Below, piece after piece: positions 9,251-64,000 of a DNA stretch of 64,000 nucleotides. This stretch comes from Candidatus Sericytochromatia bacterium (GTDB lineage Bacteria > Cyanobacteriota > Sericytochromatia > UBA7694), in assembly GCA_037968875.1 (NCBI GenBank), contig JBBKWI010000085.1, forward strand, positions 1,072 to 65,071, in the 5' to 3' direction. The notes beneath the pieces are model-generated. The model worked only from the letters and a program-made list of their open reading frames with translations, ran no database searches and was not told the origin of the DNA. The position numbers and the translations under genes were made by a program. Positions within the stretch are counted from its first letter, which is position 1, and the number at the start of each line of letters is the position of its first letter.

Positions 9251-10055
9251 AGCACGGATTCATCCCAGTGCCAGGATCCATCCCAGTGCTGTGATTTCAG
9301 AGAATGCTGAGATTGGGGCTGACGTTCAGATTGGCCCTTATGTGGTCGTCGGTGAGCAAAGCCGTATCGCCGAAAATTGTCAGATAGGCCCTTATTCTCA
9401 GATTGGGGATTTAACTGAAATTGGCCCTGCTTGTCGAATCTCAGCCCATGCCGTTGTGGGCTCCTCTTCTCAGGATCTCAAGCACCAACAAGGGGTGGTT
9501 AGCTGGCTTAAAATCGGCGCTCGCAATCGTATTCGTGAGTTTGTGACGATCAATCGTGCCACCGATCTGGGTGACGTGACCCGCCTGGGCGATGATAATT
9601 TATTGATGGCCTATGCCCATGTAGCCCATGATTGTCAGCTAGGCAATCGGGTCGTGCTGGCCAATGGTGCGACTTTAGGTGGGCATGTGCAATTAGCTGA
9701 TGATGTCATTATCGGGGCCATGACCGGGGTGCACCAATTTGTCCAGATAGGTCGTCTGGCGATGATTGGCGCGATGTCGCGGGTCTGTAATGATGTGCCG
9801 CCCTTTATGCTCTGTTCTGGTTCGCCGCCAAAACTCTATGGTCTGAATACGGTTGGTTTACGACGCGCAGGTTTTCGGGCCAGTGTCAGGCATGAGCTCA
9901 AAAACGCATATCAGACGCTGTATCGTCAACAGCTGAGTTTGGATCAGGCTCTGTCGGCGCTCGAAAGCATGTCTAGTCAAGAAGTGATTGAATTGTTGCG
10001 CTTTTGCCAGCAAAGTCAACGGGGACTGGTCGGTTATAAGCAGAGCATTTTTTAA
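9243..10055 (+). CDS. lpxA: UDP-N-acetylglucosamine O-acyltransferase
   Basis: ORF of 270 aa with left-handed beta-helix hexapeptide repeats. It aligns with E. coli LpxA along its whole length. Confidence 0.85.
   Translation: MPEARIHPSARIHPSAVISENAEIGADVQIGPYVVVGEQSRIAENCQIGPYSQIGDLTEIGPACRISAHAVVGSSSQDLKHQQGVVSWLKIGARNRIREFVTINRATDLGDVTRLGDDNLLMAYAHVAHDCQLGNRVVLANGATLGGHVQLADDVIIGAMTGVHQFVQIGRLAMIGAMSRVCNDVPPFMLCSGSPPKLYGLNTVGLRRAGFRASVRHELKNAYQTLYRQQLSLDQALSALESMSSQEVIELLRFCQQSQRGLVGYKQSIF
9251..9286 (+). repeat. Imperfect 18-bp tandem duplication inside the lpxA 5' end
   Basis: gcacggattcatcccagt / gccaggatccatcccagt (15 of 18 identical). It encodes ARIHPS-ARIHPS, whereas canonical LpxA has a single I-H-P-[ST]-A. 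Confidence 0.6.
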
Positions 10056-50133: not shown

Positions 50134-50145
50134 GGGTGAAGCTCC

Positions 50146-51009
50146 TTAGTGTGTGTGTACGATGTTTTGGCAGGCACGGGTCGCAGTCCTTAAAAAATGC
50201 TGACTATCTGCGAGTAAGTCAGCATGCTGAACCAGCTCTGAGCTTTTGAGAATAGCCCCAAACCAGCCGTCGGTCCGCCAAAAACCGCCTGCTGGCAATG
50301 CGGGTAGTGTATCAGGATTCAGGTTTTCGAGCTCTGGATGCGGCCAGGGTGTCACGTAAAAATAAGGCTCGTCATAATGACTGTCACCCGGTGAAAACCC
50401 GGCATTGACCTCGCCGGCTTTGACTTCGGGGTATTTTTGTAAGCTGGCCATGTCAAAATGATGAGGCCAACAGACCAATGGGGGCTGATCTGGAAATGAT
50501 TGTTGCACAACAGTTAAGGCTGTATGAGCGAGTTGAAACCATTGCTGCAAACATTTGAGTTTGTCTGGCTCCGGTGTAAAGGCTGCTCCTGCTTGTACTC
50601 CATGCTCAGGCATTTCGTGGGGGATCTCTTTGAGCGGATTCGTCGTTGGATCCGTGAGATTTAATTTTTCAGATAACCAGTTTTGAATCTCCGCCTGGGT
50701 GATGCCCTGGAGCTGGAGCTCTGGCGAATCTGTTTGTCTTGCGTGTGGGCGCAAAACGAAGCGAAATGGCTCAAAATGCAGTTCAAGCTCGCTGTAACCA
50801 TGGGCTGGAAGCGTTTGCAGTGGCTGGGTTTTAAAGCACTGAGACTCGGGATCCCAAGACATGGCATAGTGTAGCCAATCTTCATGAGAGACTCCATAAG
50901 TCAGTCCCCATTGTCCCAGCGCTTGTACTGCCCAATGCACTTGCAAACGGCTATCGATGAGTTGTGTCGTGTCATGATTTTTCAGGGTTTGGATATCTAT
51001 CTGAACCAT
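50146..51009 (-). CDS. Hypothetical protein (first gene of the Rieske-GltS operon)
   Basis: The ORF track extends to a TTG at 51060, but the ATG at ~51009 has a good SD (AAGAGAAAGAGG). I recognise no domain. Confidence 0.35.
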   Translation of the reverse strand: MVQIDIQTLKNHDTTQLIDSRLQVHWAVQALGQWGLTYGVSHEDWLHYAMSWDPESQCFKTQPLQTLPAHGYSELELHFEPFRFVLRPHARQTDSPELQLQGITQAEIQNWLSEKLNLTDPTTNPLKEIPHEMPEHGVQAGAAFTPEPDKLKCLQQWFQLAHTALTVVQQSFPDQPPLVCWPHHFDMASLQKYPEVKAGEVNAGFSPGDSHYDEPYFYVTPWPHPELENLNPDTLPALPAGGFWRTDGWFGAILKSSELVQHADLLADSQHFLRTATRACQNIVHTH

Positions 51010-51070
51010 ATCAGGCCTCTTTCTCTTGTCGATGATAGGTTTATCCTGACATAGGTTCAACTAGAGATGC

Positions 51071-51086
51071 TGTCACCTGCGTGACA
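51071..51086. promoter_or_regulatory. Candidate Crp/Fnr-family operator: TGTCA-CCTGCG-TGACA (perfect dyad)
   Basis: The site lies in the divergent intergenic region about 62 bp upstream of the ATG at 51009. It is one of six copies of this dyad found between 51 and 64 kb. Confidence 0.5.
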
Positions 51087-51128
51087 AAGTGTTTAAGTTA
51101 AATATGCTTAATTCTTAGTAAGCTAGAT

Positions 51129-51224
51129 TTAGTTTAAAAGTGAGGGGGCGGGATTCAGCCGAGTCATTTTGCGTTTTTGCATGCGGATCTTGGCCGGATC
51201 TCTGGGCAAATTGACAAGCTGAAA
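51129..51224 (-). pseudogene. Remnant 3' fragment of a Crp/Fnr-family regulator gene, paralogous to the 63603 gene
   Basis: The minus-strand reading frame gives '...LVNLPRDPAKIRMQKRKMTRLNPAPSLLN*'. The regulator C-terminus is '...LLKRLQDQGKIRMQKRKIIWLSPVSSLLS*'. The two share a ~30-nt core at about 88% identity (TTTTnCGTTTTTGCATGCGrATCTTGsCC), and an in-frame stop lies 32 codons upstream. Confidence 0.55.
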
Positions 51225-51348
51225 TTAATTGTCATTTACCAGACAGAATTCTTTTCCTTTTATGCTCTATACTTCCGCTAAATGCTCAGTTGAAGGGCCG
51301 TCAATGGCTTGCCGTTAGCAAAATCAACCCAAAGAGGACTCAGATTTA

Positions 51349-52854
51349 ATGCATATTGTTGAACCCCGTGATGCCCATAATATCGAATTGTTGAAGCAGG
51401 TGCACCCTGAAAACTGGAAAAACCCCCGACCAGACGGACCTTATAACCTGGTGGTAATTGGCGGCGGAACCGCCGGACTGGTTTCGGCTGCCGGTGCGGC
51501 AGGCCTCGGGGCCAAAGTTGCTTTAATTGAGCGCAGCTTAATGGGCGGAGACTGTCTCAATACAGGTTGCGTACCGTCCAAAGCCCTGATTCGCTCAGGA
51601 CGGGCCGCCCATGATATTCGTGAAGCTGCTCAATTTGGCATTCACAGTGAAATTCAGGAGATTGACTTTGCTGCCGCCATGGGCCGCATGCGCCAGGTGC
51701 GCGCACATATCAGCCATCATGATTCATTTGAGCGTTTTAAAAATCTAGGCATTGATGTTTATATGGGTTCCGCCCAGTTTATCAATGACCGTCAGATTCA
51801 GGTCGGAGACCAGATCCTGGACTTTAAAAAAGCGGTGATCGCCACGGGTGCACGGGCCCGTGTGCCAGATCTCCCCGGCTTGCAAGATGTCGGTTATTTA
51901 ACCAATGAAAATGTCTTTAATTTGACGGAGCTGCCCAAACGTCTGGTTTGTATCGGTGGGGGCCCGATTGGCTGCGAGCTAGCTCAGGCTTTTCATCGCC
52001 TGGGTGCCAAGGTCACGCTGATTCATAACAGTGATCATTTGCTCAACCGCGAAGATCCCGACGCCGCTGCAATTGTGCAGGACCAGTTTATCAATGAGGG
52101 AATTGAACTGATACTCAATGCTGAATTGACTGGCGTGAGTCAGTCGACAGAAGGTAAAGTCATTAATTATACGGTGCAAGGGCAGACCCGTCAGGTCCAT
52201 GCCGATGCTATTTTGCTGGCCACTGGCCGTCAGCCCAATGTCGATAATCTGGGACTCAAAGAAGCTGGGGTGCGCTTTAAGCCCCAGGGTGTGGATGTGA
52301 ACGATTTTTTACAGACCAGCAATCCCCGCATTTTTGCTGCCGGGGATGTCTGTATGCGTTGGCAATTTACCCATGCAGCAGATTTCGCGGCCCGGATTGT
52401 TTTGCAGAATGCTCTGTTTATGGGGCGTAAAAAATTATCGGGCTTGCTAATGCCCTGGTGCACCTATACGGATCCAGAAGTAGCACATGTGGGACTCTAT
52501 GCTCATGAGGCCAAAGCTCAGAATATTGCCGTGGATATTTATCAGAAACCCTTTTCAGAAGTCGATCGGGCGCTGGCGGACGGTGAAACCGAAGGCTTTG
52601 TCAAAGTGATCACAGCCAAAGGCAGCGATCGCATTCTGGGAGCGACCGTGGTGGCCCGTCATGCCGGGGATATGCTGGGCGAACTGACCCTGGCCATGCA
52701 GCACAAGATCGGTCTGGGCAAGATCGCTTCGGTGATTCATCCTTATCCAACTCAGGCAGAAGCAATCCGGCATTTGGGAGATCAATACAACCGCACCCGC
52801 CTGAAGCCCTGGGTCAAAAACCTGTTTAATACCTGGCTGCGTATGCGTCGTTAA
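51349..52854 (+). CDS. FAD-dependent pyridine-nucleotide-disulfide oxidoreductase (glutathione-reductase / dihydrolipoamide-dehydrogenase family)
   Basis: ORF of 501 aa with the redox-active 'GGDCLNTGCVPSK', two Rossmann GxGxxG motifs and a C-terminal dimerisation-domain 'HPYPTQAE'-type His-Pro. Confidence 0.8.
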   Translation: MHIVEPRDAHNIELLKQVHPENWKNPRPDGPYNLVVIGGGTAGLVSAAGAAGLGAKVALIERSLMGGDCLNTGCVPSKALIRSGRAAHDIREAAQFGIHSEIQEIDFAAAMGRMRQVRAHISHHDSFERFKNLGIDVYMGSAQFINDRQIQVGDQILDFKKAVIATGARARVPDLPGLQDVGYLTNENVFNLTELPKRLVCIGGGPIGCELAQAFHRLGAKVTLIHNSDHLLNREDPDAAAIVQDQFINEGIELILNAELTGVSQSTEGKVINYTVQGQTRQVHADAILLATGRQPNVDNLGLKEAGVRFKPQGVDVNDFLQTSNPRIFAAGDVCMRWQFTHAADFAARIVLQNALFMGRKKLSGLLMPWCTYTDPEVAHVGLYAHEAKAQNIAVDIYQKPFSEVDRALADGETEGFVKVITAKGSDRILGATVVARHAGDMLGELTLAMQHKIGLGKIASVIHPYPTQAEAIRHLGDQYNRTRLKPWVKNLFNTWLRMRR

Positions 52855-52879
52855 GCTGATAGCTATCAAAGGAGAACCT

Positions 52880-53239
52880 GTGAAGATCTTTAGCCTGTTT
52901 GAAAAACTCTGGCAGCGGCTACAGCCAGCCGTAAACGCCAGCCGTTTTGCGGGCTTTGATCTGGATAAGCCCCCTACAGAATTGGTGTTATACAAGTTTA
53001 ATAGCTGTATTTTTTGCCAGCGAGTGATGGGCTTTATCGACCAGCACCAGCTGCCGGTGAGCTATCGGGATTTGCGAGAGCATTCAGAGTATCGCCAGGA
53101 ACTGCTGGCTCTCACTGGCCGGAGCCAGGTGCCCTGTTTGTTGATCGACGGCCAGCCTATGCTAGAGTCGGCAGATATTGTGGCCTATCTGCATCATGTT
53201 TTTGTCTCAGGAGGAAAGAGCAATGCCGAAATACTTTAA
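52880..53239 (+). CDS. Glutaredoxin-like thioredoxin-fold protein (CxxC)
   Basis: ORF of 119 aa with 'YKFNSCIFCQRV' as the active site and a Grx-like 'VPCLLIDGQ'. It has a GTG start with AAGGAG 7 nt upstream. Confidence 0.55.
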   Translation: MKIFSLFEKLWQRLQPAVNASRFAGFDLDKPPTELVLYKFNSCIFCQRVMGFIDQHQLPVSYRDLREHSEYRQELLALTGRSQVPCLLIDGQPMLESADIVAYLHHVFVSGGKSNAEIL

Positions 53240-53284
53240 AAGCATGGCTTAAACCCCCACCTTTTTTATAAATGGCAATGTTTT

Positions 53285-53300
53285 TGTTAGCTGGCTGACA
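53285..53300. promoter_or_regulatory. Candidate Crp/Fnr-family operator: TGTTA-GCTGGC-TGACA (1 mismatch)
   Basis: The site lies about 91 bp upstream of the peroxiredoxin-like ATG at 53384. Confidence 0.4.
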
Positions 53301-53383
53301 GAATAGGATAGCCCCTATTGTTTAATCTAAATATACCGGGCAGACCTGATCTGCACGAATCAGTACGAATATAGGAGTGTGAC

Positions 53384-54028
53384 ATGTCTCTCAATACCGA
53401 ACTCAAAGCCTTTAACCAGCAGGGTTTAGCCCAGATGCCCGCCGAGATGGTTGATACGATTCAGCAAGGGCTCAAAGAGCTGCAGGCCAGTAGCCTGGAA
53501 GCGCAAGCGCTAAGACGGGGGCGCTTTCCTGATTTTGACTTACCCAATGCCCTGGGACAAACGATTCGTTTAAGCGACATTTTGCAAAAGGGCCCGGCAG
53601 TCATCAGCTTTTATCGCGGCAGTTGGTGTCCGTACTGCAATATTGAGCTACGAGCGCACCAACAGCTGTTGCCAGAGCTTCAGGCTCTGGGTGCCCAATT
53701 GATAGCTATTTCACCAGAACAACCGGATTACAGCCTGAACCTCAAAGAAAAGAAAAACCTTGCCTTTGAAGTACTCAGTGATACCGACAACCAGCTGGCC
53801 AAACAACTGGGCCTGGTGGCTGATCTGAGCCAGGCACTGGATCAACTCTATCAGAAGGTGCTGCAGGCCAATGTGGCTGAGCGCAACGGCACACCATCCC
53901 CCCAGCTGCCCATCCCCGCAACGTACGTACTCAATAGCGACGGAGAAATTCTGTTGGCCCATGTTCAGGTGGATTATACCCAGCGACTGGAGCCTGCTGA
54001 GATTCTTGAGACGCTCAAGCAAATCTGA
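53384..54028 (+). CDS. Peroxiredoxin-like (AhpC/TSA / redoxin family) protein
   Basis: ORF of 214 aa with 'FYRGSWCPYCN', a thioredoxin-fold CxxC, in a Prx-like context. Confidence 0.55.
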   Translation: MSLNTELKAFNQQGLAQMPAEMVDTIQQGLKELQASSLEAQALRRGRFPDFDLPNALGQTIRLSDILQKGPAVISFYRGSWCPYCNIELRAHQQLLPELQALGAQLIAISPEQPDYSLNLKEKKNLAFEVLSDTDNQLAKQLGLVADLSQALDQLYQKVLQANVAERNGTPSPQLPIPATYVLNSDGEILLAHVQVDYTQRLEPAEILETLKQI

Positions 54029-54089
54029 ATTTTTTTCCACTGTGTTAGGCCATTTGACTGGCCTTGCCCGCCCAGGCGTGACACAATCT

Positions 54090-54512
54090 TCAGTCTTGTA
54101 GGTCTCGTTCTTGTAGACGATTCTGAAACTGGTGCTGCTTGATCTCAATGGCCCGTGAAGCGAAAACAATCAAGAGCACCAGTGCAATTAGCCAGGCTAA
54201 AATACCCAGGCAGAGGCCCCAGCGGCTAAACCCACTGAGATTTTCAAACAGTGAGCTGATCGCAACCAGTAAAAAAGAGCCTGCGCTAGCATAAAGACAG
54301 AACAAGCTTTGGCTTAGCCGCTTAAGTTGCTGTATTTTTTGGCGTGTCAATTGCTGATCCAGCGGATTTTGCTGCAGCAAGGTGTGGATCTCCTGACTTA
54401 AATAAACCGATAGGTTGACCGTTGACATAATCACCAGCCCGACTCCGGGCATCAGGCTGAGAGGCAATATAGCTTGTTCTAAAAGATTCATTGAAAATAG
54501 GCCTGTCTTCAT
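54090..54512 (-). CDS. Small membrane protein (3–4 transmembrane segments)
   Basis: ORF of 140 aa. It is the last gene of the operon containing the Met-rich protein and cytochrome c. The true start may be the second ATG ('MNLLEQ'), just after the hairpin. Confidence 0.4.
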   Translation of the reverse strand: MKTGLFSMNLLEQAILPLSLMPGVGLVIMSTVNLSVYLSQEIHTLLQQNPLDQQLTRQKIQQLKRLSQSLFCLYASAGSFLLVAISSLFENLSGFSRWGLCLGILAWLIALVLLIVFASRAIEIKQHQFQNRLQERDLQD

Positions 54513-54524
54513 TTAGACAGGCCT
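54499..54524 (-). terminator. Strong 10-bp GC-rich hairpin between cytochrome c and the membrane-protein gene
   Basis: AGGCCTGTCT-tcattt-AGACAGGCCT. On the minus-strand mRNA it is followed by AUUUUCA, then an AUG. The annotated first AUG sits in the loop. Confidence 0.35.
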
Positions 54525-54533
54525 AACTCCTTT

Positions 54534-54896
54534 TTATTTCTTTTTCAGGGTGTGTATATAGGCAACAACATCCTGAATTTGCGTATCAGACAGGGTCGTT
54601 CCCCAGGCCGGCATCGCCCCTTTGCCCTTCTTGATAAAGGCCAGCATTCCAGCATCATTTTTGCTGTACTTAAAATCCCCTATCGAAAAATTCCGTGGGG
54701 GTGGCTTCAGGGCTTTGCCCGTTGGGCCGTCCGCCTTGCCGGTTTTGCCATGACAGGCAGAACAGTTTTGGGCATAGATTTTTTTACCCTTGCTGGCATT
54801 GCCTGCCGCAGCTTCAGCGGGTGGGCTGCTTTGCCATAGAGCAGCATAAGACATGCCTCCGCTAACAGCTATAATCAGAGCTAATTTTTTAAACAT
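54534..54896 (-). CDS. Class I c-type cytochrome (c6/c553-like), secreted
   Basis: ORF of 120 aa with a signal peptide, the single heme-binding 'CSACHG' and a distal Met ligand region 'GAMPAWG'. Confidence 0.75.
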   Translation of the reverse strand: MFKKLALIIAVSGGMSYAALWQSSPPAEAAAGNASKGKKIYAQNCSACHGKTGKADGPTGKALKPPPRNFSIGDFKYSKNDAGMLAFIKKGKGAMPAWGTTLSDTQIQDVVAYIHTLKKK

Positions 54897-54918
54897 TTCT
54901 GAACTCCTTTTTTATGAT

Positions 54919-56787
54919 TTACTTTAGTTTGAGGGTAATGCTACTGCGAACCACAGGAGCGGTCCCATACTTGCCCCCGGCAAACATGGGATTAGGTACA
55001 CCATCTTCATCGGTATCACGCATTTCCATCATCATTTTCATGCGTTGGTCTTGCGGCATTGTCATTAACTTTTTCATCTGCAGGGTCATTTTCGCCATTT
55101 CAATTTCGTCCTCGGGAAGATCTTCACCGGATTGCCCCATTTCAGCCAATTGCAGTCCCTGGCCATCTTCGCGTCTAACGGTGTGGTTGAAAAAGAGCGT
55201 CATGTGTTTGACTGCATCAGCCTGCAGCGGTTCTGAAGCCAGGGCCAGGTCGCGCAAAGCACCCAGTGTTGCAGCCACCGTCGCAGGGCTAAAAGTAGTC
55301 TGGTGTTGATCGTTGCGCTGGGCTTTAAACAATTGATTGGATTCAGACCAGAATTGTTGCTTCAGAGCCTGGTACCCTTTGCTAGCTGCACTCAGGTAAC
55401 GGGCATCTTTTGTGGTTTTATAAGCCAGAGTCAGTGTTCTGATGGCCTGGGTCTGGGCTTCCAGGTTAGGGTTAGTCAAATCAGCTTGTTGACGATTCAA
55501 GTCATAACCGTTGGCAAAACTGCCATCTTTTTGTTGCAGCTGATTCAGTACAAAATCAGCTTGCTGGGTTAAAAAATCTCGGGCCATTTTTTGAATCATG
55601 GGCTCATTATGAAAAGCCCGCACACTGTTTTCAAGCGCAACGGCCAGGACGCCCAGTTCAGCGGTGTCGGCGTAAGTGCCTGCTTTACCCGGTTCAGCAC
55701 GGCTGGCCATCACCTGATGCTGTGAGTTTTGATGCATGGCCATCAAATTTTTGAGAATCACCGCCGAAATACCCTTGCTTAACATATGGGGATCTTGAGG
55801 AAAGAGGGCACCTTTGCTTTCGTCGCCAAAGATAGCATCATAGCTGTCTTTGACTGTGGGGTCTGAATAGTGGTAAAACTCACTGCTGGCCCAGAGTAAA
55901 GAAGCCTGATCATAAAGGTGACTGCTTTTATCCAGGACATCAAAGCCAGCCAGCATGGGGGGCATACCTGGCATCATCGACTTCAGTTGGGGTTTGACGG
56001 CGTGTGGAAAATACTTCAGGCCTTGCATGGGATCGTAAGTCATGGGATTGACGGCACCCAGATTTTTCCCATCAAACGCCAGTTGATCTTTAAAGGTCAT
56101 CAGACTGTTGAGTGCCAAAGCGGTCAGGACGCCGCCACGAAAACCATCAAAAGCATCTCTGCCCAGGAGATTGCCGCGATGCGATGAGAAAAAGTCTTCG
56201 GCCCAGAGGATTTGTTTGGTGGCTGTTTGACCGATGGCTGCTGGGGTCAGGGTTTGATCGGCCTGCCCAGGGTCCCAGCGCATGGTGCCAAAGTCAAAGG
56301 GGTTGGGGCTTTGGGTAAATTGGGGATTGCCTTCAGCAAAGGGTAAATAGATCGGGTAGGGATTTTTGGGCATCTCTTGTAGCCCGGAGCGCATCATAAA
56401 TTGCTTCATTTTGTGCATCATAAAATCCTGGGGTTTGGCAAATTTGTCAGGATTCATTTTAGACATTTGCTGTCCCACTGGGCCATTGACCATATGCACA
56501 CCCATGCCGGAGTTCATCACCAGGCTGCCCATATTGTAAACGCTATACCAATAGGCATCTGAATTGATGCTGGAGCCCAGTGATTTATACGGCAGGCCGC
56601 AGGAAAAAATTAGAATTTCTTCATTGGCCAGCTGCATTGCTGCCGCGGTATTAAAGCGCGGGGCCTTGTGCTTGTCAGCCATCATCATGTCCTGTTCAGC
56701 TGCCAGAGCCGAAGTCGGAACCAGCTGCACAAACAACACGGAGGCTGCTGTCAGGTTCAGTATTTTGGACGGTAAGGATAATTTCAT
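54919..56787 (-). CDS. Secreted Met-rich protein of unknown function
   Basis: ORF of 622 aa with a signal peptide. It has Met clusters at both ends ('EQDMMMADKH', 'FMMHKMKQFMMR', 'MKMMMEMR'). It contains no CxxCH motif. Confidence 0.4.
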   Translation of the reverse strand: MKLSLPSKILNLTAASVLFVQLVPTSALAAEQDMMMADKHKAPRFNTAAAMQLANEEILIFSCGLPYKSLGSSINSDAYWYSVYNMGSLVMNSGMGVHMVNGPVGQQMSKMNPDKFAKPQDFMMHKMKQFMMRSGLQEMPKNPYPIYLPFAEGNPQFTQSPNPFDFGTMRWDPGQADQTLTPAAIGQTATKQILWAEDFFSSHRGNLLGRDAFDGFRGGVLTALALNSLMTFKDQLAFDGKNLGAVNPMTYDPMQGLKYFPHAVKPQLKSMMPGMPPMLAGFDVLDKSSHLYDQASLLWASSEFYHYSDPTVKDSYDAIFGDESKGALFPQDPHMLSKGISAVILKNLMAMHQNSQHQVMASRAEPGKAGTYADTAELGVLAVALENSVRAFHNEPMIQKMARDFLTQQADFVLNQLQQKDGSFANGYDLNRQQADLTNPNLEAQTQAIRTLTLAYKTTKDARYLSAASKGYQALKQQFWSESNQLFKAQRNDQHQTTFSPATVAATLGALRDLALASEPLQADAVKHMTLFFNHTVRREDGQGLQLAEMGQSGEDLPEDEIEMAKMTLQMKKLMTMPQDQRMKMMMEMRDTDEDGVPNPMFAGGKYGTAPVVRSSITLKLK

Positions 56788-56849
56788 GGTGCCTCTTCAA
56801 TTTTTTTTCGAGAATAGGTTTAGTATTAAACAAATGAGTCTGGATATAC

Positions 56850-56865
56850 TGTCAGCCAGATGACG
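56850..56865. promoter_or_regulatory. Candidate Crp/Fnr-family operator: TGTCA-GCCAGA-TGACG (1 mismatch)
   Basis: The site lies about 65–80 bp upstream of the Met-rich protein ATG at 56787. Confidence 0.4.
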
Positions 56866-57023
56866 AATTGAATTTTTGCAGCAGAGATACCGCATATTTT
56901 AAACGGAAGACCTGTCTGGCTGCTGGAAAATTGCCACATGGAGTGCTCAGTCCGGGTGAGTGCTCAGCATGGCGGGGAGCCGGCAAAGCATGTATCAGCA
57001 CAGTCAAAAGGACTAAGGAGCTG

Positions 57024-57707
57024 TTAGAGGCAGTGTTGGTAAAATGCTGGCCAAAGCTCCAACCGAATATCCGGGTAAGCTGCAAGTATCTGTTGCAGGG
57101 TTGTCAAATCAGCTGCAAAGGGGTCCAGAAGAGGAGCAAAGGGGTGTAAGGGTTCAGACAGGGGCTTGCTAAAATCATCCCAGTGCACAGCCACAACGCG
57201 CTGAACACCCCGACCCGCAATCAAGGCCTGTGCAAAGGCCTGTTGCTCCGCCAGGCTCAGGCGATGCAGCCCCGGTGTGCTGACAAAGAGAGTCTGCCAT
57301 CGACCCGGCCATTGTGCCATGGCGGGTGTTAGGCGGGTGCCGTGTAGCAAACTATTACCTCGTGGGTGTTGAATCAAAATATTGTATGTTCCTCCTTCGC
57401 GGTAATGAAGCATATGTGCCGGTTGGGTGACAGGTGAGTGGATCTCGCCATCCAGGCCTAGCCAATGGGCCAGCGGACCGAGTGACATATGCTGACCCGG
57501 AGCCATGGTGATCTCAAAATCTCCCAGCTGATAGCGAGCGCCTGGTATCGCTATCATCATTTGGGATTCAGGCAAACCCGCCCCGCAATGTTCAGATAGT
57601 GTTGCGGGCATCCACTGGGCATAGCTGGCCGGATCGGGTGGTTGCAATGCCACACAAGAGCTCAGACTGATCAGCAGCGCGCTGAAAAAAGGCAATAGAC
57701 GAATCAT
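57024..57707 (-). CDS. Hypothetical lipoprotein
   Basis: ORF of 227 aa with a signal peptide and the lipobox 'ISLSSC'. Confidence 0.35.
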   Translation of the reverse strand: MIRLLPFFSALLISLSSCVALQPPDPASYAQWMPATLSEHCGAGLPESQMMIAIPGARYQLGDFEITMAPGQHMSLGPLAHWLGLDGEIHSPVTQPAHMLHYREGGTYNILIQHPRGNSLLHGTRLTPAMAQWPGRWQTLFVSTPGLHRLSLAEQQAFAQALIAGRGVQRVVAVHWDDFSKPLSEPLHPFAPLLDPFAADLTTLQQILAAYPDIRLELWPAFYQHCL

Positions 57708-57741
57708 AATCTTCAGTGTAAAGACAAAAGGATGCTGAAAC

Positions 57742-57757
57742 TGTCAGGGGGATGACA
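57742..57757. promoter_or_regulatory. Candidate Crp/Fnr-family operator: TGTCA-GGGGGA-TGACA (perfect dyad)
   Basis: The site is central in the divergent 57708–57811 intergenic region, 62 bp before the DUF4344 ATG and 42 bp before the minus-strand gene start. Confidence 0.5.
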
Positions 57758-57811
57758 GTCTCAATGCCCTACGAGAGGGTATGCTGAAAGCAAATCAAAA
57801 GAGGGTTCACC

Positions 57812-58555
57812 ATGCGTTTACAATATATGCTTTGGCTCTGCCTGTTGCTCCTGTCAGCCTGTGGCTCGATACACCCGCTGGATCAAGGAGTCCGTGAGAC
57901 CAGCAATCAAGCCTTTCGGATTCAATTGGCTGAAGAGCTCCGTTCGGAGACAATGCGCTTTGCACCTGTTCTGGCACGTTTTGAGCGCACCCTTGAGGCC
58001 TTGCCGCTGGCGCTGCAGCAGCAAATCACCGTTGAGATCCGTAACTGTGCACAGCCCAGCGCTTTTTATCAGCCTGCTGAGCGTTTGATTGTGATGTGTC
58101 CTGGCTTATTGGAGACCCTGATCCAACGTTTTGATGAGACACAAGCTCAGGAGGTTTTTCATTTTGTGATGCTGCATGAATTGTCTCATGCCCTGATTGA
58201 TCAATTGAATTTGCCGATTCTGGGCAGTGAAGAGGATGCTGCCGATGCCATGGCGACTGTGCTTTTGCTGGAGCAGGATCATTCGCCGCTGGGAGCGATT
58301 CTGGCGGGCATTGATTTTTACGAGCAGTTTCGCCGGGGTTTTGCGACCCCCTGGGCCGGGGTGCACGCTATTGGACCTCAACGCATGTTTAATCTTGTCT
58401 GCTGGGCTGTTGGCGGTCAGCCTGAGCTGCTTTCAGACCCCCTCATTCGGCGTCTGCATGGTGAAATGCAGACGCTAAACCGCCACTGTAGCCAGGAGTA
58501 CGACCAGCAATTGCAGGCCGTGAATCACCTGCTGGCACTGGACTCACGAAGATAG
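57812..58555 (+). CDS. DUF4344-like putative secreted zinc metallopeptidase
   Basis: ORF of 247 aa with a signal peptide and 'MLHELSHALID', an HExxH motif. Confidence 0.5.
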   Translation: MRLQYMLWLCLLLLSACGSIHPLDQGVRETSNQAFRIQLAEELRSETMRFAPVLARFERTLEALPLALQQQITVEIRNCAQPSAFYQPAERLIVMCPGLLETLIQRFDETQAQEVFHFVMLHELSHALIDQLNLPILGSEEDAADAMATVLLLEQDHSPLGAILAGIDFYEQFRRGFATPWAGVHAIGPQRMFNLVCWAVGGQPELLSDPLIRRLHGEMQTLNRHCSQEYDQQLQAVNHLLALDSRR

Positions 58556-58594
58556 CGTATTGGATCGTTTTTCTGATGGGTTTGTTTCTCCTAT

Positions 58595-59719
58595 TTACTC
58601 GGCTGAATAGATGCTGCTGTCAGGTCGAAAGACCAACCAGGCAAAGGCAAAATAATCGCCATAAGGCAAAAGCTTCAATTGTTGACCCTGCAACGGGCCT
58701 GTCAGGGCTTGACCCGTTGCGCTCCAGACCGATCCGGTTTGCTGATCACGCACCTGTCCGGCCTGCCATTCAAAGCTTAATACTTTACCCTGCACCACAG
58801 GATCAAAAACCCCTGTAGTGCCCGCCTGCTGTGAGTCAGCAATCTTGCTGGCATCCAGTGCTGAAACGGCACCATCCAGATGAAAAACCACCAAATCCTG
58901 AGTGCCCACCCGATCCTGAATGACGCGCTGCTGCCGGGTCAGACGGTAGGGATATGCTTTGCTCTGATCTGAAAAATGGACACCCAAGACCTTTTCCATG
59001 GGCGGCAGGCGCGGATCGGTTTCACCGTCAAAGCGAAAAGGCCGCTGAGAAATATCGTCGTAACCTCGGTAAGGATTATGGCCATAATCGCGCTCATAAC
59101 CCGTTTCACGTGAGAGAACCTGGCCTTCAGGGTGCTGGGCCTGAAACTGTTCAAAAGAAATAATCTGTGAAGGCCTGACTTTCAGCTGGGCTCCGGTCAG
59201 ATTGCCGACCACAGCTTCACCGGTAAATTGTTGCCAGAGACTCTCAGTTTGCCGGTCATACATGATCATATCTGAATGGCGCAACATGCCCGAAACGCCA
59301 AACTCCAGAGTCTTTGAGCCCACGATGCGTTCAAAAACCAGTGCGCTGTAGCAGAGCGGGCAAAAGGTGATCAGTACCGGTTGGCCTTCAAAGATATCAT
59401 TCACCATTTCATGCCAGATCAGAATTTGCAGCGGATAGGCCCGGGCTTCCTGGCTACCCGCCAGTGCAATTACGGGCTCCTGGGGCTTGAGCCATTGACT
59501 GGCCGCTGCTAAAGTAATAAATCGAGGGTGATCAATGCTAGGAATACCGTCTTTTGGCGGTCCGCCGGGCAAAAGCTCCTGCAGGGGGATACTACTTTTA
59601 CTTAAATCAGTCTCAAATCCACTGATAGGCAATGCGAGTGAAGAACTTGAATCAGACATAATGGCTCCTGTGTGTGTATTTAGTGCAGTGAGTGCGGCAG
59701 AGAGCTGGAACGGCTGCAA
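58595..59719 (-). CDS. DUF3179-family protein
   Basis: ORF of 374 aa with 'HEMVNDIFEG.PVLITFCPLCYSALVF...FGVSGMLRHSDMIMYDRQTESLWQQ'. Confidence 0.45.
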   Translation of the reverse strand: MQPFQLSAALTALNTHTGAIMSDSSSSLALPISGFETDLSKSSIPLQELLPGGPPKDGIPSIDHPRFITLAAASQWLKPQEPVIALAGSQEARAYPLQILIWHEMVNDIFEGQPVLITFCPLCYSALVFERIVGSKTLEFGVSGMLRHSDMIMYDRQTESLWQQFTGEAVVGNLTGAQLKVRPSQIISFEQFQAQHPEGQVLSRETGYERDYGHNPYRGYDDISQRPFRFDGETDPRLPPMEKVLGVHFSDQSKAYPYRLTRQQRVIQDRVGTQDLVVFHLDGAVSALDASKIADSQQAGTTGVFDPVVQGKVLSFEWQAGQVRDQQTGSVWSATGQALTGPLQGQQLKLLPYGDYFAFAWLVFRPDSSIYSAE

Positions 59720-59766
59720 GAATATGCTGCAATAAATTCATACTATAGGAAACAAAATCTTTTGAA

Positions 59767-59782
59767 TGTCAGATAGCTGACA
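59767..59782. promoter_or_regulatory. Candidate Crp/Fnr-family operator: TGTCA-GATAGC-TGACA (perfect dyad)
   Basis: The site lies in the divergent region, 55 bp before the DUF3179 start and about 123 bp before the ALS-like ATG. Confidence 0.5.
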
Positions 59783-59897
59783 TGCGTTAAGATATTCAAA
59801 ATGATATGCTCAAATTCAGAATCATAATTAAAATTCAGATTTTTTCTGCTATTTACTTAAATTTATTTGATTTACTAAGAATAGGATCACACATATC

Positions 59898-61538
59898 ATG
59901 AAGGCATCTGATTTATTTATAAAAGCACTAGAAAACGAAGGCGTTGAGTATATCTTTGGTATTCCGGGTGAAGAGAATCTGGATTTTTTGGATTCATTAA
60001 AGAATTCCTCAATCAAACTGATTTTGACTCGCCATGAGCAGGGAGCCGGTTTTATGGCTGCAACTTATGGTCGCTTAACAGGCAAAGTAGGTGTTTGTCT
60101 TTCAACCTTAGGCCCGGGTGCAACAAATTTAGTCACTCCAGCAGCTTATGCCAATTTAGGGGCCATGCCCATGCTGATGATCACAGGCCAAAAGCCCATT
60201 AAGAAAAGCAAACAAGGACGTTTTCAAATCATCGATACGGTCAATATGATGCGCCCACTCACCAAATACAGCGAGCAGATCGTGAATGGAAACAATATTC
60301 CTGCGATGACCCGAGAGGCGATACGACTGGCAATAGAAGAGCGTCCCGGAGCCGTACATTTAGAGCTTCCTGAAGATATCGCAGCAGAAGCCTGTGAGGA
60401 TCGTGTCTTTGCAGTGGTGGGACATCGTCGACCCGATGCCGATGAACAAGCCATATTAGAAGCTGTCGCCATGATTGAAAAAGCCAAGATGCCGCTGATT
60501 TTAATTGGAGCAGGTGCCAATCGAAAACCCACCAGCAAGGCATTGAATAAACTGATTGAAAAAACCAATATTCCTTTTTTCAATACCCAATTGGGCAAAG
60601 GGGTTGTAGATGAAAGACACCCTCGATTTTTAGGGACAGCAGCCTTATCAGACCATGATTTTCTTCATTGCGCTGTCAATAGAGCCGATCTGATCATTAA
60701 CGTGGGTCACGATGTCATCGAAAAACCGCCCTTTTTTATGGACCAAATCAAAAAAGTCATTCATCTGAACTTTTTCCCTGCTGAGGTTGATGAAGTCTAT
60801 TTCCCTCAGCTCAACGTGGTCGGAGATATCGCGACCTCACTTGAACATATTGCCGATCATATCAAAGAAAAATCTGAAAATTGGGATTTCTCCTATTTTG
60901 AACGGATTAAAACAGAAGTCGAATCCCATTTATCAAAATACGAAAAGGATCAGCGTTTTCCGATACTGCCTCAAAGACTGGTTAAAATAGTGAGAGAGCA
61001 TTTGCCAGAAGATGGCATTGTGACTCTGGATAATGGTGTGTATAAAATTTGGTTTGCTCGAAATTTCCCATCTTATCAACCCAATACCCTTTTATTGGAC
61101 AATGCCCTGGCAACGATGGGGGCTGGACTACCATCAGCTATCGCCGCAAAAATAGTTTTCCCAGAACGCAAAGTTATCTCTGTTTGCGGAGACGGTGGGT
61201 TTATGATGAATTCCCAGGAACTAGAAACAGCCGTTCGTTTGGGCTTGGATTTGGTCGTCATTGTTTTAAATGACCGTTCATATGGCATGATCAAATGGAA
61301 GCAAGAAGCCATGGGCTTTGCTAATTTCGGATTAGAATATCAAAACCCTGATTTTGTTAAATATGCTGAAAGTTATGGGGCCGTCGGGCATCGCCCCCAA
61401 AGCACCCAGGAATTCACTCAAATTTTAGATCAAACGCTTAATGCTAAAGGGATTCACTTGATTGATTTAGCAGTGGATTACAGCCTGAATCATCGTATTT
61501 TAAATGTCTTACTTAAAGAAAAAACCTGTGTTTTATAA
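59898..61538 (+). CDS. Thiamine-pyrophosphate enzyme, acetolactate-synthase (catabolic AlsS)-like
   Basis: ORF of 546 aa with the TPP-binding 'GDGGFMMNSQELETA' and ALS-family N- and middle domains. Confidence 0.75.
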   Translation: MKASDLFIKALENEGVEYIFGIPGEENLDFLDSLKNSSIKLILTRHEQGAGFMAATYGRLTGKVGVCLSTLGPGATNLVTPAAYANLGAMPMLMITGQKPIKKSKQGRFQIIDTVNMMRPLTKYSEQIVNGNNIPAMTREAIRLAIEERPGAVHLELPEDIAAEACEDRVFAVVGHRRPDADEQAILEAVAMIEKAKMPLILIGAGANRKPTSKALNKLIEKTNIPFFNTQLGKGVVDERHPRFLGTAALSDHDFLHCAVNRADLIINVGHDVIEKPPFFMDQIKKVIHLNFFPAEVDEVYFPQLNVVGDIATSLEHIADHIKEKSENWDFSYFERIKTEVESHLSKYEKDQRFPILPQRLVKIVREHLPEDGIVTLDNGVYKIWFARNFPSYQPNTLLLDNALATMGAGLPSAIAAKIVFPERKVISVCGDGGFMMNSQELETAVRLGLDLVVIVLNDRSYGMIKWKQEAMGFANFGLEYQNPDFVKYAESYGAVGHRPQSTQEFTQILDQTLNAKGIHLIDLAVDYSLNHRILNVLLKEKTCVL

Positions 61539-61559
61539 AAACTGAAAGCGGTTCAAACA

Positions 61560-62951
61560 ATGAAAACATTAAATGTATACGCACCCCATGATCAAAGTCT
61601 GATTCAAGAGATTGCTCTGATGGGAGCAGCTGAATTAGAACATATGATTAACAAAGCCCATCAGCTATTTCAAAACCCTGATCAAGCCTTGCCTGCTTAT
61701 GAACGGGTCGATATTTTGGAAAGAGTGGTTCATATTATGAATCAACAAGTCGAACGCCTAACCAAAATAGCCGCAGAAGAAGGGGGGAAACCTTATCAAG
61801 ACTCAAAAGTAGAGGTCCTGAGAGCGATCAATGGGGTGAAATTGGCGATTGAACATATCAGCCAGTTAAAAGGGGAACAAATCCCAATGGGGCACACTCG
61901 CTCTTCAGCTCAACGCCTGGCTTTTACAACCAGAGAACCGATTGGATTGGTCGCCTCTGTTAGCGCTTTTAATCATCCTTTGAATCTGATTATTCATCAA
62001 ACCATACCTGCGATTGCTGTTGGTTCGCCCGTGATTGTGAAACCGGCTGGGACAACCCCGCTTTCTTGCCTGGCTTTCATGGATATATTAAAAGAAGCCG
62101 GCTTGCCTGAAGGGTGGTGTAGCGCCTTTATTGGCAATCGAGAATTGGCTGAGAAATTAGTCACAGATTCTCGGGTGAACTATTTCTCTTTTATTGGCTC
62201 AGGGGGTGTGGGCTGGTCTTTACGTTCAAAACTCTCTCCAGGGACTCGCTGTGCTCTTGAACATGGCGGGGTTGCACCGGTCATTGTAGAGCCTGATGCA
62301 GATATAGAAAGCATGTTGCCGGCTTTACTTAAGGGCGGCTTTTATCATGCGGGTCAGGTCTGTGTCTCTGTGCAACGTATTTATGTACACCAAAAAATTT
62401 GTACACAAGTGGCCCAACAATTGGCCGAAATGGCAGAAAAACTAGTCGTTGGAAACCCTCTGAACGAAGATACAGAAGTGGGACCCTTAATTCTACCCAA
62501 AGAAGTAGACCGGGTCGAAAGCTGGGTCAATGAGGCTATCGAATTGGGTGCGACTGTATTGTGTGGTGGCAAACGTTTGTCTGATACTTACTATGCACCC
62601 ACAGTGCTGCTGAATCCACCTGATACGGCCAAAATTTCTAGCCAAGAAGTTTTTGGCCCCGTCGTTTGTGTTTATAGTTATGCTGACAGAGCTGAAGCCA
62701 TCAAAAGAGCCAATGCTTTACCTTATGCTTTTCAAGCCGCTATTTTCACCAATGATCTCAATGTGAGTTTGGAACTGGTTAAGCAACTCAATGCCACAGC
62801 AGTGATGGTGAATGACCATACTGCCTTCAGAGTCGATTGGATGCCTTTTGGGGGTCGAGATGTTTCAGGTATTGGTATGGGCGGCATTCCCTATTCTATG
62901 CATGAAATGACCCGCACAAAAATGATGGTGATTAAGTATAAAAATGGATAG
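61560..62951 (+). CDS. NAD(P)-dependent aldehyde dehydrogenase
   Basis: ORF of 463 aa with 'ALEHGG' (the catalytic Glu region), 'FYHAGQVCVSVQR' (the catalytic Cys) and 'FIGSGGVG'. Confidence 0.8.
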   Translation: MKTLNVYAPHDQSLIQEIALMGAAELEHMINKAHQLFQNPDQALPAYERVDILERVVHIMNQQVERLTKIAAEEGGKPYQDSKVEVLRAINGVKLAIEHISQLKGEQIPMGHTRSSAQRLAFTTREPIGLVASVSAFNHPLNLIIHQTIPAIAVGSPVIVKPAGTTPLSCLAFMDILKEAGLPEGWCSAFIGNRELAEKLVTDSRVNYFSFIGSGGVGWSLRSKLSPGTRCALEHGGVAPVIVEPDADIESMLPALLKGGFYHAGQVCVSVQRIYVHQKICTQVAQQLAEMAEKLVVGNPLNEDTEVGPLILPKEVDRVESWVNEAIELGATVLCGGKRLSDTYYAPTVLLNPPDTAKISSQEVFGPVVCVYSYADRAEAIKRANALPYAFQAAIFTNDLNVSLELVKQLNATAVMVNDHTAFRVDWMPFGGRDVSGIGMGGIPYSMHEMTRTKMMVIKYKNG

Positions 62952-62968
62952 GGATTTGCGTCAAGGTC

Positions 62969-63427
62969 TTAGTCAGTTTTAGATTTTGGCTCTTTTAATA
63001 CCCATAAAGTATCAAAATCTCTGAGTAAAAAGAGTGAGATGCAAGCGGCAAGCATAGGCCAGGCAGCAAAAAACAAGAGGCTTTTCCAGGGATTTAAGTA
63101 TTGCTTATAAGAACTAAAGGTAGATACACTATGCATCAATAAGATAAGTCCATAAGTATATTTTTTCTTAAATCCAATAACAAAGGCAAAAACCACAGCC
63201 AATTGAAGTGAGGCAATAAGGGACAGAACTTGTGAACTCATATCAGGAAGCGCATAAAAGTTTTTAAAAATCATTGTGGCATGATTGGGATTGATCAATT
63301 TATCCAAACTCCACATAAGCATGACCAAAAATATGCTCAACCGCAATAGAGTTAAGGAAATAGCCAGTTTTTCTTTAAGACTTTTAATTTCAAAATCCTG
63401 CATTTGAGAAGCTGCCTTCAGTTTCAA
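62969..63427 (-). CDS. Small membrane protein (4 transmembrane segments)
   Basis: ORF of 152 aa. It lies downstream of the 63512 dyad. Confidence 0.4.
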   Translation of the reverse strand: MKLKAASQMQDFEIKSLKEKLAISLTLLRLSIFLVMLMWSLDKLINPNHATMIFKNFYALPDMSSQVLSLIASLQLAVVFAFVIGFKKKYTYGLILLMHSVSTFSSYKQYLNPWKSLLFFAAWPMLAACISLFLLRDFDTLWVLKEPKSKTD

Positions 63428-63511
63428 TAAAATTCGTCACTTTTAGATGGACACTAAATTTTAGAGCAAATATACTCTTATAAAAGGTTAACATACGAAA
63501 ATAAATAGAGC

Positions 63512-63527
63512 TGTCATCTACCTGACA
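63512..63527. promoter_or_regulatory. Candidate Crp/Fnr-family operator: TGTCA-TCTACC-TGACA (perfect dyad)
   Basis: The site lies about 85–92 bp upstream of the membrane-protein start at 63427 and about 80 bp past the regulator stop. Confidence 0.5.
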
Positions 63528-63602
63528 TTTTTTCGTCCATACATGCTTAGATTGAGCAGAGTCAAACGAACACAAAATAGAGCTATTTTATAGCATGTGG
63601 GT

Positions 63603-64000
63603 CTAGCTTAAAAGCGAACTGACGGGACTCAACCAGATGATTTTTCGTTTTTGCATGCGAATCTTGCCCTGGTCTTGCAGGCGCTTGAGCAAATCCGTGA
63701 CCGTGGGCCGGGCCAGGTTGGTCAACTCGCCCAGATCCTGATGGGTCAGGGGTAAATTGATCAGCGTACCGTCTGGCAAGGATTCACCGTGCTCTTTGCT
63801 GAGGTATTTTAAGACACTTTCAATCCGCTGCTCAGCAGTTTTAAAGACCAGATCCTGCACGCGGCTTGTGACCTGGCGCAGGCGTAAACCCATTAGCTTG
63901 GTGACTTTGAGATTGAGTTGGGGGTGACTTTCTAAAAAGGATTCAAAGTCATTTTTATGTACGATGCAGAGCAAGGTTTCTTCCAGGGCTTCAGCCATGC
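63603..64000 (-). CDS. Crp/Fnr-family transcriptional regulator (3' part; the gene continues beyond the window end)
   Basis: It shows cNMP-binding-like and HTH_Crp C-terminal regions ('THQDLGELTNLARPTVTDLLKRL'). The N-terminus lies outside the window. Confidence 0.65.
   Translation of the reverse strand, partial: MAEALEETLLCIVHKNDFESFLESHPQLNLKVTKLMGLRLRQVTSRVQDLVFKTAEQRIESVLKYLSKEHGESLPDGTLINLPLTHQDLGELTNLARPTVTDLLKRLQDQGKIRMQKRKIIWLSPVSSLLS

Follow-up and report, generated by a model that had tools for sequence, protein, structure and literature searches.

The DNA analyzed here is a 64-kb stretch of a contig (JBBKWI010000085.1) from a Candidatus Sericytochromatia bacterium, referred to below as the window, which ends inside the gene for a transcriptional regulator of the Crp/Fnr family. 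Between 51.0 and 63.6 kb of the window there are seven strong copies of the dyad TGTCA-N6-TGACA, every one of them intergenic, and these dyads, the genes beside them and the regulator are the subject of this account. The genes were annotated with Pfam and NCBIfam. In the following list of genes and dyads the gap is the number of nucleotides between a dyad and a -10-like hexamer.

48523 to 51060, minus strand: DUF5996 gene (50146-51060) and gene for a Rieske/glutamate-synthase flavin mononucleotide (FMN)-domain protein (48523-50133), 12 bp apart (Pfam).
51071 to 51086, no single strand: exact dyad TGTCACCTGCGTGACA, 44 nt 3' of the stop codon of a regulator-gene relic, with the DUF5996-GltS/Rieske operon downstream; TATGCT at 51103-51108 (plus, gap 16) and TATCAT at 51032-51037 (minus, gap 33).
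51129 to 51201, minus strand: remnant of a regulator gene (3' end), seen as a direct repeat of 72 nt with 76% identity to 63604-63675.
51230 to 51245, plus strand: dyad TGTCATTTACCAGACA with one mismatch, before the MerA-like disulfide reductase and glutaredoxin operon; TATACT at 51268-51273, gap 22.
51349 to 53239, plus strand: predicted target operon for a class I flavoprotein disulfide reductase, MerA-like NF004991 (51349-52854), and a glutaredoxin-like CxxC protein (52880-53239).
53285 to 53300, plus strand: dyad TGTTAGCTGGCTGACA with one mismatch, upstream of the AhpC/TSA-type (WCPYC) gene; TAATCT at 53323-53328, gap 22.
53384 to 54028, plus strand: predicted target gene for an AhpC/TSA (redoxin) family protein with WCPYC.
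54090 to 56787, minus strand: predicted target operon for a 622-residue Met-rich secreted protein (54919-56787), a cytochrome c (54534-54896) and a 140-residue membrane protein (54090-54512).
56850 to 56865, minus strand: dyad CGTCATCTGGCTGACA (minus-strand reading) with one mismatch, before the 622-residue protein, cytochrome c and DUF2721-like operon; AATACT at 56822-56827, gap 22.
57024 to 58555, divergent predicted targets: 227-residue lipoprotein (57024-57707, minus) and DUF4344 putative metallopeptidase (57812-58555, plus).
57742 to 57757, divergent: exact dyad TGTCAGGGGGATGACA, common to the DUF4344 (plus) and 227-residue lipoprotein (minus) promoters; TATGCT at 57780-57785 (plus, gap 22) and TACACT at 57715-57720 (minus, gap 21).
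58595 to 62951, divergent predicted targets: DUF3179 protein with CPLC (58595-59719, minus); acetolactate-synthase-like thiamine diphosphate (ThDP) enzyme (59898-61538, plus) and aldehyde dehydrogenase (61560-62951, plus).
59767 to 59782, divergent: exact dyad TGTCAGATAGCTGACA, common to the ThDP enzyme and aldehyde dehydrogenase genes (plus) and the DUF3179 gene (minus); TATGCT at 59805-59810 (plus, gap 22) and TAGTAT at 59740-59745 (minus, gap 21).
62969 to 63427, minus strand: predicted target gene for a 152-residue membrane protein with a weak match to the MauE/DoxX clan (MauE, E 0.0024, below the Pfam cut-off).
63512 to 63527, minus strand: exact dyad TGTCATCTACCTGACA, 75 nt 3' of the regulator stop codon and 84 nt 5' of the gene for the 152-residue membrane protein; TAACCT at 63485-63490, gap 21.
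63603 to 64000, minus strand: C-terminal 131 codons of the Crp/Fnr-family regulator gene, which runs past the window end and would end near 64289.

The frequency of the dyads was compared with that in dinucleotide-preserving shuffles of the 64-kb window (n = 100). The four exact copies, at 51071, 57742, 59767 and 63512, are those named in the original prediction, and they stand against a shuffle mean of 0.05, close to the chance expectation of about 0.06 per 64 kb that it had given; no shuffle held four exact dyads, and the maximum in any one of them was one. With up to one mismatch the window contains 10 matches, where 1.9 are expected. Three of these, at 20333, 45086 and 52599, lie within long open reading frames (ORFs), score low and were set aside. 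The one-mismatch copies predicted at 53285 (TGTTA...) and 56850 (...TGACG) are both present, and the predicted total of six real sites overlooked a seventh, at 51230 upstream of the disulfide-reductase gene. That all of the sites are intergenic, as had been claimed, holds for the seven strong dyads. With a weight matrix trained on the window sites and their orthologues, the seven dyads score 18-24 bits and no other position in the window exceeds 10.7, a comparison that is partly circular, since the same sites were used for training, but the gap is wide.

Six of the seven dyads lie 34-115 bp from a start codon, in reasonable agreement with the spacing of about 40-125 bp first proposed. The exception is 51071, which is 10 bp from the TTG assigned mechanically as the start of the DUF5996 ORF; a likelier start, the ATG at 51009, is about 62 bp away. 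The spacers all differ, as originally listed, and so do the flanks; a repeat search of the window detected no longer repeat containing the dyads, and the proposal of a binding motif rather than a dispersed repeat stands. Scans of the 64-kb window with Rfam and for tRNA genes gave no tRNA gene and no Rfam family at the gathering threshold. Separately, we note that the low-scoring match at 52599-52614, inside the reductase coding region, is a hybrid dyad, TGTCAAAGTGATCACA, with one half-site of the type bound by Cmr of Mycobacterium tuberculosis (see below) and one of the CRP type, and is probably due to chance.

The unusual surroundings of 51071 can be related to the relic at 51129-51201. The relic encodes about 21 codons, ...AKIRMQKRKMTRLNPAPSLLN, to be compared with GKIRMQKRKIIWLSPVSSLLS in the intact gene, and it lies between the dyads at 51071 and 51230, oriented away from the reductase gene. 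From this position and orientation it follows that a copy of the regulator gene once stood divergently beside the reductase gene, as one still does in the related locus L007, and was then mostly deleted. The relic probably accounts for the 288-bp gap with its two dyads and for the odd geometry at 51071, where the distance from the relic stop codon parallels that of 63512 from the stop codon of the intact regulator gene.

Orthologous target promoters in other Sericytochromatia retain the dyad, which answers the call in the original prediction for a check in related genomes. In the related metagenome-assembled genome (MAG) JACYMC01, exact dyads accompany a VTT-DUF3179 operon (locus L090, position 3111) and the DUF4344/227-residue lipoprotein gene pair, whose divergent arrangement is also kept (L090, position 8004). 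At the latter site the half-sites are identical to those at 57742 in 10 of 10 positions and the spacer in none of six, with hexamers at gap 21 on both sides; half-sites that are kept while the spacer diverges are a signature of selection on protein contacts. The same MAG has an exact dyad before its peroxiredoxin-like gene (L091, 6775; spacer identical to that at 53285, hexamer gap 22) and the dyad GGTCATCTGGCTGACA before its gene for the 622-residue protein (L091, 3134), which shares the spacer and the position of the mismatch with 56850 and has TATGCT at gap 21. The orthologue of 51230, at 9895 in L007 (minus strand), has the same imperfect AGACA half-site, five of the six spacer bases and TATACT at gap 22. 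A more distant genome, whose homologue of the 622-residue protein is 59% identical (L092), has five dyads in 22 kb, which precede a DUF3179 operon (an exact dyad, at 5358), a peroxiredoxin-like gene, a thioredoxin-CcdA operon, the gene for the 615-residue homologue and an S8 peptidase gene. Dyads thus precede the AhpC/TSA orthologues of both L091 and L092, and the synteny of the 622-residue protein operon is kept in both loci.

The protein encoded at the window edge was recovered in full length from the same contig through its cluster membership (P0149, 228 residues). It has the architecture of the Crp/Fnr family, with an N-terminal domain resembling cyclic nucleotide-binding domains and a C-terminal HTH_Crp_2 domain: the fragment in the window matches Pfam HTH_Crp_2 (E 3.5e-12) and Crp, and the near-identical protein P0001 carries PF00027 and PF13545 in precomputed annotation. 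The sites likewise have the format of Crp/Fnr operators, since each of the seven spans 16 bp and consists of two inverted 5-bp half-sites around a 6-bp spacer. In the PDB the regulator matches more than 100 Crp/Fnr chains, and among relatives of known structure NtcA is the nearest (E 1.5e-22); its scores fall well short of the NCBIfam family cut-offs for NtcA, CRP, PtrA and FNR. The regulator and the target proteins have their nearest relatives in Candidatus Sericytochromatia (including 'Blackallbacteria') and in Vampirovibrionales/Melainabacteria MAGs, which places the DNA in an uncultured, non-photosynthetic member of the Cyanobacteriota.

The recognition helix of CRP reads S-R-E-T-V-G-R. 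In the regulator described here, the helix is A-R-P-T-V-T-D, as had been read from the translated fragment (63603-63998, minus strand), and a proline stands at the position of CRP Glu181. An alignment of 12 regulator sequences reaching down to 32% identity contains one invariant cysteine, Cys108. The regulator of the window has a second cysteine ahead of it, at residue 97 of P0149 (EHDCMAEA), where the other aligned regulators carry Ser, Asn, Glu or Asp and never Cys.

Five further loci encode a regulator with the A-R-P-T-V helix, 57-91% identical to the 131-residue fragment, and all five of them, when scanned, have a dyad beside the regulator gene:

L001: dyad at 2716, between the thioredoxin-CcdA genes and a short-chain dehydrogenase/reductase (SDR) gene.
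L007: dyads at 9754 and 9895, between the reductase and regulator genes.
L009: dyads at 3505 and 3833.
L093: dyads at 281, 5534, 6992 and 7332.
L095: dyad at 7253, between the regulator stop codon and the reductase gene.

The regulator genes with this helix adjoin a MerA-like reductase gene, a thioredoxin-CcdA operon, or both; in L007 and L095 the reductase gene is the immediate neighbor, and in L009 and L093 it lies in the cluster that holds the regulator gene. One of the L007 sites deserves separate mention: the one-mismatch dyad TGTCAGGCTACTGAAA at 9754-9769 comes after the predicted reductase promoter and before the start codon, 3' of the likely transcription start. It may have arisen by chance or be an additional site, perhaps a negative one.

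To these we added 80 more distant relatives from metagenomes, and 89 related loci were classed by the residue that follows the conserved arginine of the helix. Exact dyads number five in the 193 kb of loci with Arg-Pro (R-P) or Arg-Gln (R-Q) helices, and there are none in the 480 kb of loci with Arg-Glu (R-E). Homologues with an R-Q-T helix and a dyad are found in L003 (10497; Pontibacter) and in four unassigned metagenome contigs, L023 (6685), L027 (4823), L029 (6717) and L030 (6729), and in all five the dyad lies 10-100 bp 3' of the regulator stop codon. The order of regulator stop codon, dyad and next gene seen at 63512 thus recurs in these five loci and in L095. The genes that follow the dyads of R-Q loci encode small glutaredoxin/thioredoxin-like proteins, DoxX (clearly so in L023), AhpD-like proteins and a 709-residue fusion of VTT(DedA) and disulfide-reductase domains, which suggests that the R-Q loci represent a conserved module spanning phyla.

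An experimental counterpart to this pairing of helix and motif exists in Cmr (Rv1675c). The Cmr recognition helix, QRPSINK, has Pro209 in place of the CRP glutamate, and Cmr binds TGTCA-N6-[C/T]GACA according to systematic evolution of ligands by exponential enrichment (SELEX), footprinting and chromatin immunoprecipitation sequencing (ChIP-seq); positions 4 (C) and 13 (G) discriminate Cmr sites from CRP sites (PMC4705688, PMC5758884). Both the Cmr-type operator and the proline are present here, and Cmr, which agrees in both residue and motif, is therefore a direct experimental precedent for a change at half-site position 4 upon loss of the glutamate. This precedent and the comparative loci support the original proposal that the dyads are operators of the adjoining Crp/Fnr protein, in which the missing glutamate alters that position. 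Cmr shares with the system in the window the operator palindrome TGTCAGCGTGCTGACA and the replacement of Arg-Glu by Arg-Pro. It differs in its N-terminal extension, its Arg-rich loop, its sensing residues C36 and C131 and its control of the DosR regulon, which is mainly repressive or dual, whereas the regulators described here have a single invariant cysteine and a promoter geometry that points to activation. Nor is Cmr a close homologue, and we rejected an assignment as the Cmr orthologue: although a Cmr crystal structure has been reported (PMC5758884), no chain described as Cmr or Rv1675c occurs among the best 60 of the 103 PDB matches of the full protein or among the 42 matches of the DNA-binding domain at E <= 1, and NtcA is the best match in both searches.

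The regulator was also compared with the better-known members of the family. Its likeness to NtcA extends to the phylum, the predicted position of the dyad near -41.5 in place of a -35 element, the TAN3T form of the -10 hexamer and the outer G-T...A-C of the site. It differs in the site itself (GTA-N8-TAC for NtcA, GTC-N8-GAC here), in the helix (R-V-T-V-T-R for NtcA, R-P-T-V-T-D here), and in the nitrogen-assimilation targets of NtcA and its effector, 2-oxoglutarate with PipX. Identification as NtcA was rejected on a score of 86.5 bits against the TIGR03697 cut-off of 244.95, on the helix ARPTVTD in place of TRVTVTR and on the GTC-N8-GAC sites. E. coli CRP has the same domain architecture and 5-6-5 dyad, and it activates from -41.5, in some cases at sites common to divergent promoters, as is predicted here. 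It differs in its TGTGA-N6-TCACA site, read by Glu181, and in binding cyclic AMP through Arg82/Ser83. As CRP, the regulator scores 85.9 bits against a cut-off of 266, has Pro for Glu181 and, in an ungapped manual alignment, has His-Glu or His-Asp in place of Arg82-Ser83. It was rejected as FNR because there is no Cys before residue 97 of P0149, and hence no N-terminal [4Fe-4S] cysteine cluster, and because the motif is not TTGAT-N4-ATCAA. CooA is a class II-type activator; it has a TGTC-type half-site like that found here, and it differs in being a haem protein that serves coo (carbon monoxide dehydrogenase/hydrogenase) operons. An assignment as CooA was rejected because neither the window nor the related loci contain coo genes and the PDB match (E 2.5e-12) is weaker than that of NtcA. 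The CooA consensus predicted for Desulfovibrio and Rhodospirillum rubrum is TGTCGGCNNGCCGACA (PMC545781), and according to the Cmr authors their motif hardly differs from the site of R. rubrum CooA (PMC4705688).

The spacing between dyad and promoter is the feature from which a mode of action may be proposed. A TAnnnT hexamer stands at gap 21-22 in seven of the nine gene-directed orientations in the window, with a chance probability, based on how often TAnnnT occurs in these intergenic regions, of about 1e-8 before correction for the choice of gap. The dyads concerned are 51230, 53285, 57742 and 59767 (both strands each) and 63512, and 56850 has AATACT at 22. The same spacing occurs at nearly all sites in L001, L007, L009, L023, L027, L029, L030, L090, L091, L092 and L095. 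With the hexamer at -12 to -7, a gap of 21-22 places the center of the dyad near -41.5 or -42.5, which is a class II position, and class II-type spacing as in NtcA promoters favors activation.

We propose that the seven dyads are operators of the 228-residue Crp/Fnr activator encoded from 63603, and on the sequence and comparative evidence we regard this prediction as likely to be correct. A dimer of the regulator would read TGTCA-N6-TGACA through a helix that starts with Arg-Pro, where that of CRP starts with Arg-Glu. Bound near -41.5 or -42.5, the dimer would take the place of the -35 element and recruit RNA polymerase, as in class II activation. The dyads at 57742 and 59767 each have -10 hexamers at equal distances on the two strands, and one bound dimer could therefore serve both of the divergent promoters. 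The predicted regulon would consist of conserved CxxC and envelope genes, and in relatives also of thioredoxin-CcdA. In silico, the sites are real, conserved and co-occur with this type of regulator at a constant spacing; from this we infer binding by the regulator, activation and the nature of the signal, the last being the least secure step.

Several observations weigh against this proposal. All transcription starts were inferred from -10-like hexamers, and the geometry at 51071 is atypical, falling outside the usual 21-22 nt and misfitting a center at -41.5. At 51071 (plus), 63512 (minus) and 59767 (plus) the promoter-proximal TGACA could itself be a -35 element, 16-17 nt from another -10-like hexamer, which would imply repression. 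Among the R-Q loci, seven of 14 have no dyad with up to one mismatch, and in only five of the 14 does a dyad adjoin the regulator gene. No greater closeness of the regulator to Cmr than to the rest of the family was detected, and the common Arg-Pro is therefore an analogy and not a sign of orthology. The AlphaFold2 model, built from an alignment of eight sequences, has a mean predicted local distance difference test (pLDDT) score of 49 and is too poor to place Cys108. Finally, the window is 64 kb of a genome, and the protein that actually binds the dyads could be a different Crp/Fnr paralogue.

The strongest alternative, which we nevertheless consider unlikely, is that the same protein acts at the same sites as a repressor, the proximal TGACA being the -35 element (xTGACA) of the promoter and the bound dimer blocking RNA polymerase until stress occurs. 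A promoter scan does return the corresponding pairs (GTGACA-16-TATGCT at 51081, ATGACA-16-TATGTT at 63517 on the minus strand and CTGACA-17-AATGAT at 59777), and Cmr is a dual regulator that represses dosR (PMC5499769) and likewise loses DNA binding when nitrosated or oxidized. However, these pairings of 16-17 nt are confined to three sites and are not kept in orthologous promoters, and the feature that does recur is a TAnnnT hexamer 21-22 nt from the dyad, a distance too long for the spacer after a -35 element in a sigma-70-type promoter. The protein might still act as a repressor at some promoters.

More improbable still is that the dyads are real operators of another factor encoded elsewhere, either a Crp/Fnr paralogue or a LysR-type regulator. 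The 64 kb in view, together with the two R-Q paralogues present in each of L002 and L003, allows for such a paralogue, and LysR genes do adjoin the orthologous islands (624-1517 in L091; 4453-5349 in L092, ending 9 bp before the dyad at 5358). The island in the window, by contrast, contains no LysR gene, and the 5-6-5 dyads, read directly from the sequence, have the Crp/Fnr format and no T-N11-A LysR core. The pairing of an Arg-Pro helix with this exact motif is matched by experiment in Cmr, and the dyad adjoins the regulator gene at each of the five other scanned loci with this helix.

We give almost no credence to a reading of the dyads as NtcA boxes (GTA-N8-TAC) that place the island under the control of nitrogen supply. 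In favor of it are the common phylum, the place of NtcA as closest solved relative and an identical architecture, in that canonical NtcA promoters have TAN3T hexamers and GTA-N8-TAC centered at about -41.5 (PMC3898017). Against this, 13 of the 14 half-sites of the window have GTC/GAC where NtcA boxes have GTA/TAC, the protein falls short of the NtcA equivalog and has R-P where NtcA has R-V, and no nitrogen-assimilation gene occurs among the targets. The motif is short, but an origin of the dyads as chance matches or a short dispersed repeat with no regulatory role is refuted by the shuffles, none of which reached four exact copies, by spacers and flanks that differ, by the absence of any longer repeat in the window and by sites that are kept while their spacers diverge.

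The predicted targets of the Crp/Fnr activator form a coherent set, described in the original prediction as oxidoreductases and periplasmic proteins; the thread common to them is better expressed as CxxC/thiol chemistry and the cell envelope. The weakest assignment is that of the DUF5996/Rieske operon, because of the geometry at 51071. The DUF3179 family includes members that are selenoproteins with UxxC (PMC9312934), and this marks the family as redox- or thiophile-active. The 622-residue protein contains the Met clusters MMMADKHK and MKMMMEMRD, has no convincing Pfam family in a Pfam scan and has 13 detectable homologues among 5.8 billion clustered proteins; those with a named source are all from Sericytochromatia, Blackallbacteria or Melainabacteria. 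A cytochrome c gene always follows its gene, and metal binding or oxidant scavenging is a possible role. The 140-residue membrane protein encoded at the end of the same operon has a weak match to DUF2721. The junction of the cytochrome c and 140-residue protein genes, inside the operon, is spanned by a perfect hairpin with an 11-bp stem, TAGGCCTGTCT...AGACAGGCCTA (54498-54525), for which internal attenuation or RNA processing is a possible function.

As to the signal, our best guess is thiol-reactive, oxidative or thiophilic-metal stress, because the regulon is rich in CxxC proteins, the regulator has an invariant cysteine and the analogous Cmr senses through cysteines. This suggestion is a tentative one, and we regard it as less likely than not to be correct. 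In Cmr the cysteines sense oxidation or nitrosation, and the protein activates an adjoining peroxiredoxin-like gene (PMC5499769).

The mechanism is not new: this is a Crp/Fnr regulon with a predicted class II layout, a switch of a fairly ordinary kind, although the lineage has been little studied. The novelty lies in the clade of regulators, with an NtcA-like sequence and a Cmr-like helix, in the conserved thiol and envelope regulon, and in the lineage; the half-site code was already known. The regulon had been put forward as undescribed, and this holds for the regulator clade and its regulon, of which we found no published description in the literature searched (curated regulon databases were outside its scope), but not for the half-site specificity, which already occurs in Cmr and CooA.

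A broader reading, which as a whole we regard as doubtful and somewhat speculative, is that the R-P and R-Q proteins may form an unrecognized NtcA-related clade of Crp/Fnr regulators across phyla (Sericytochromatia, Vampirovibrionales, Bacteroidota and others) that senses thiol stress through Cys108 and activates an envelope thiol-homeostasis regulon from -41.5. This regulon may include the MerA-like reductase with glutaredoxin, thioredoxin-CcdA, DUF3179, DoxX, VTT/DedA and the lineage-specific Met-rich protein with cytochrome c. If true, this would give several domains of unknown function their first physiological context, and would make it conceivable that NtcA descends from a stress-regulator family older than oxygenic photosynthesis.

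To our knowledge, almost nothing is known of how the non-photosynthetic sister lineages of cyanobacteria regulate their genes. For these lineages the predicted regulon provides a concrete triplet of regulator, operator and target genes, with an operator code validated in Cmr. It ties DUF3179, DUF4344, DUF5996, the 622-residue Met-rich protein and the MerA-like reductase, which in other phyla is also fused to VTT/DedA domains, to thiol/disulfide chemistry. For the Crp/Fnr family, it is a natural example in which position 4 of the half-site varies together with a single residue (Glu, Val, Pro or Gln) of the recognition helix.

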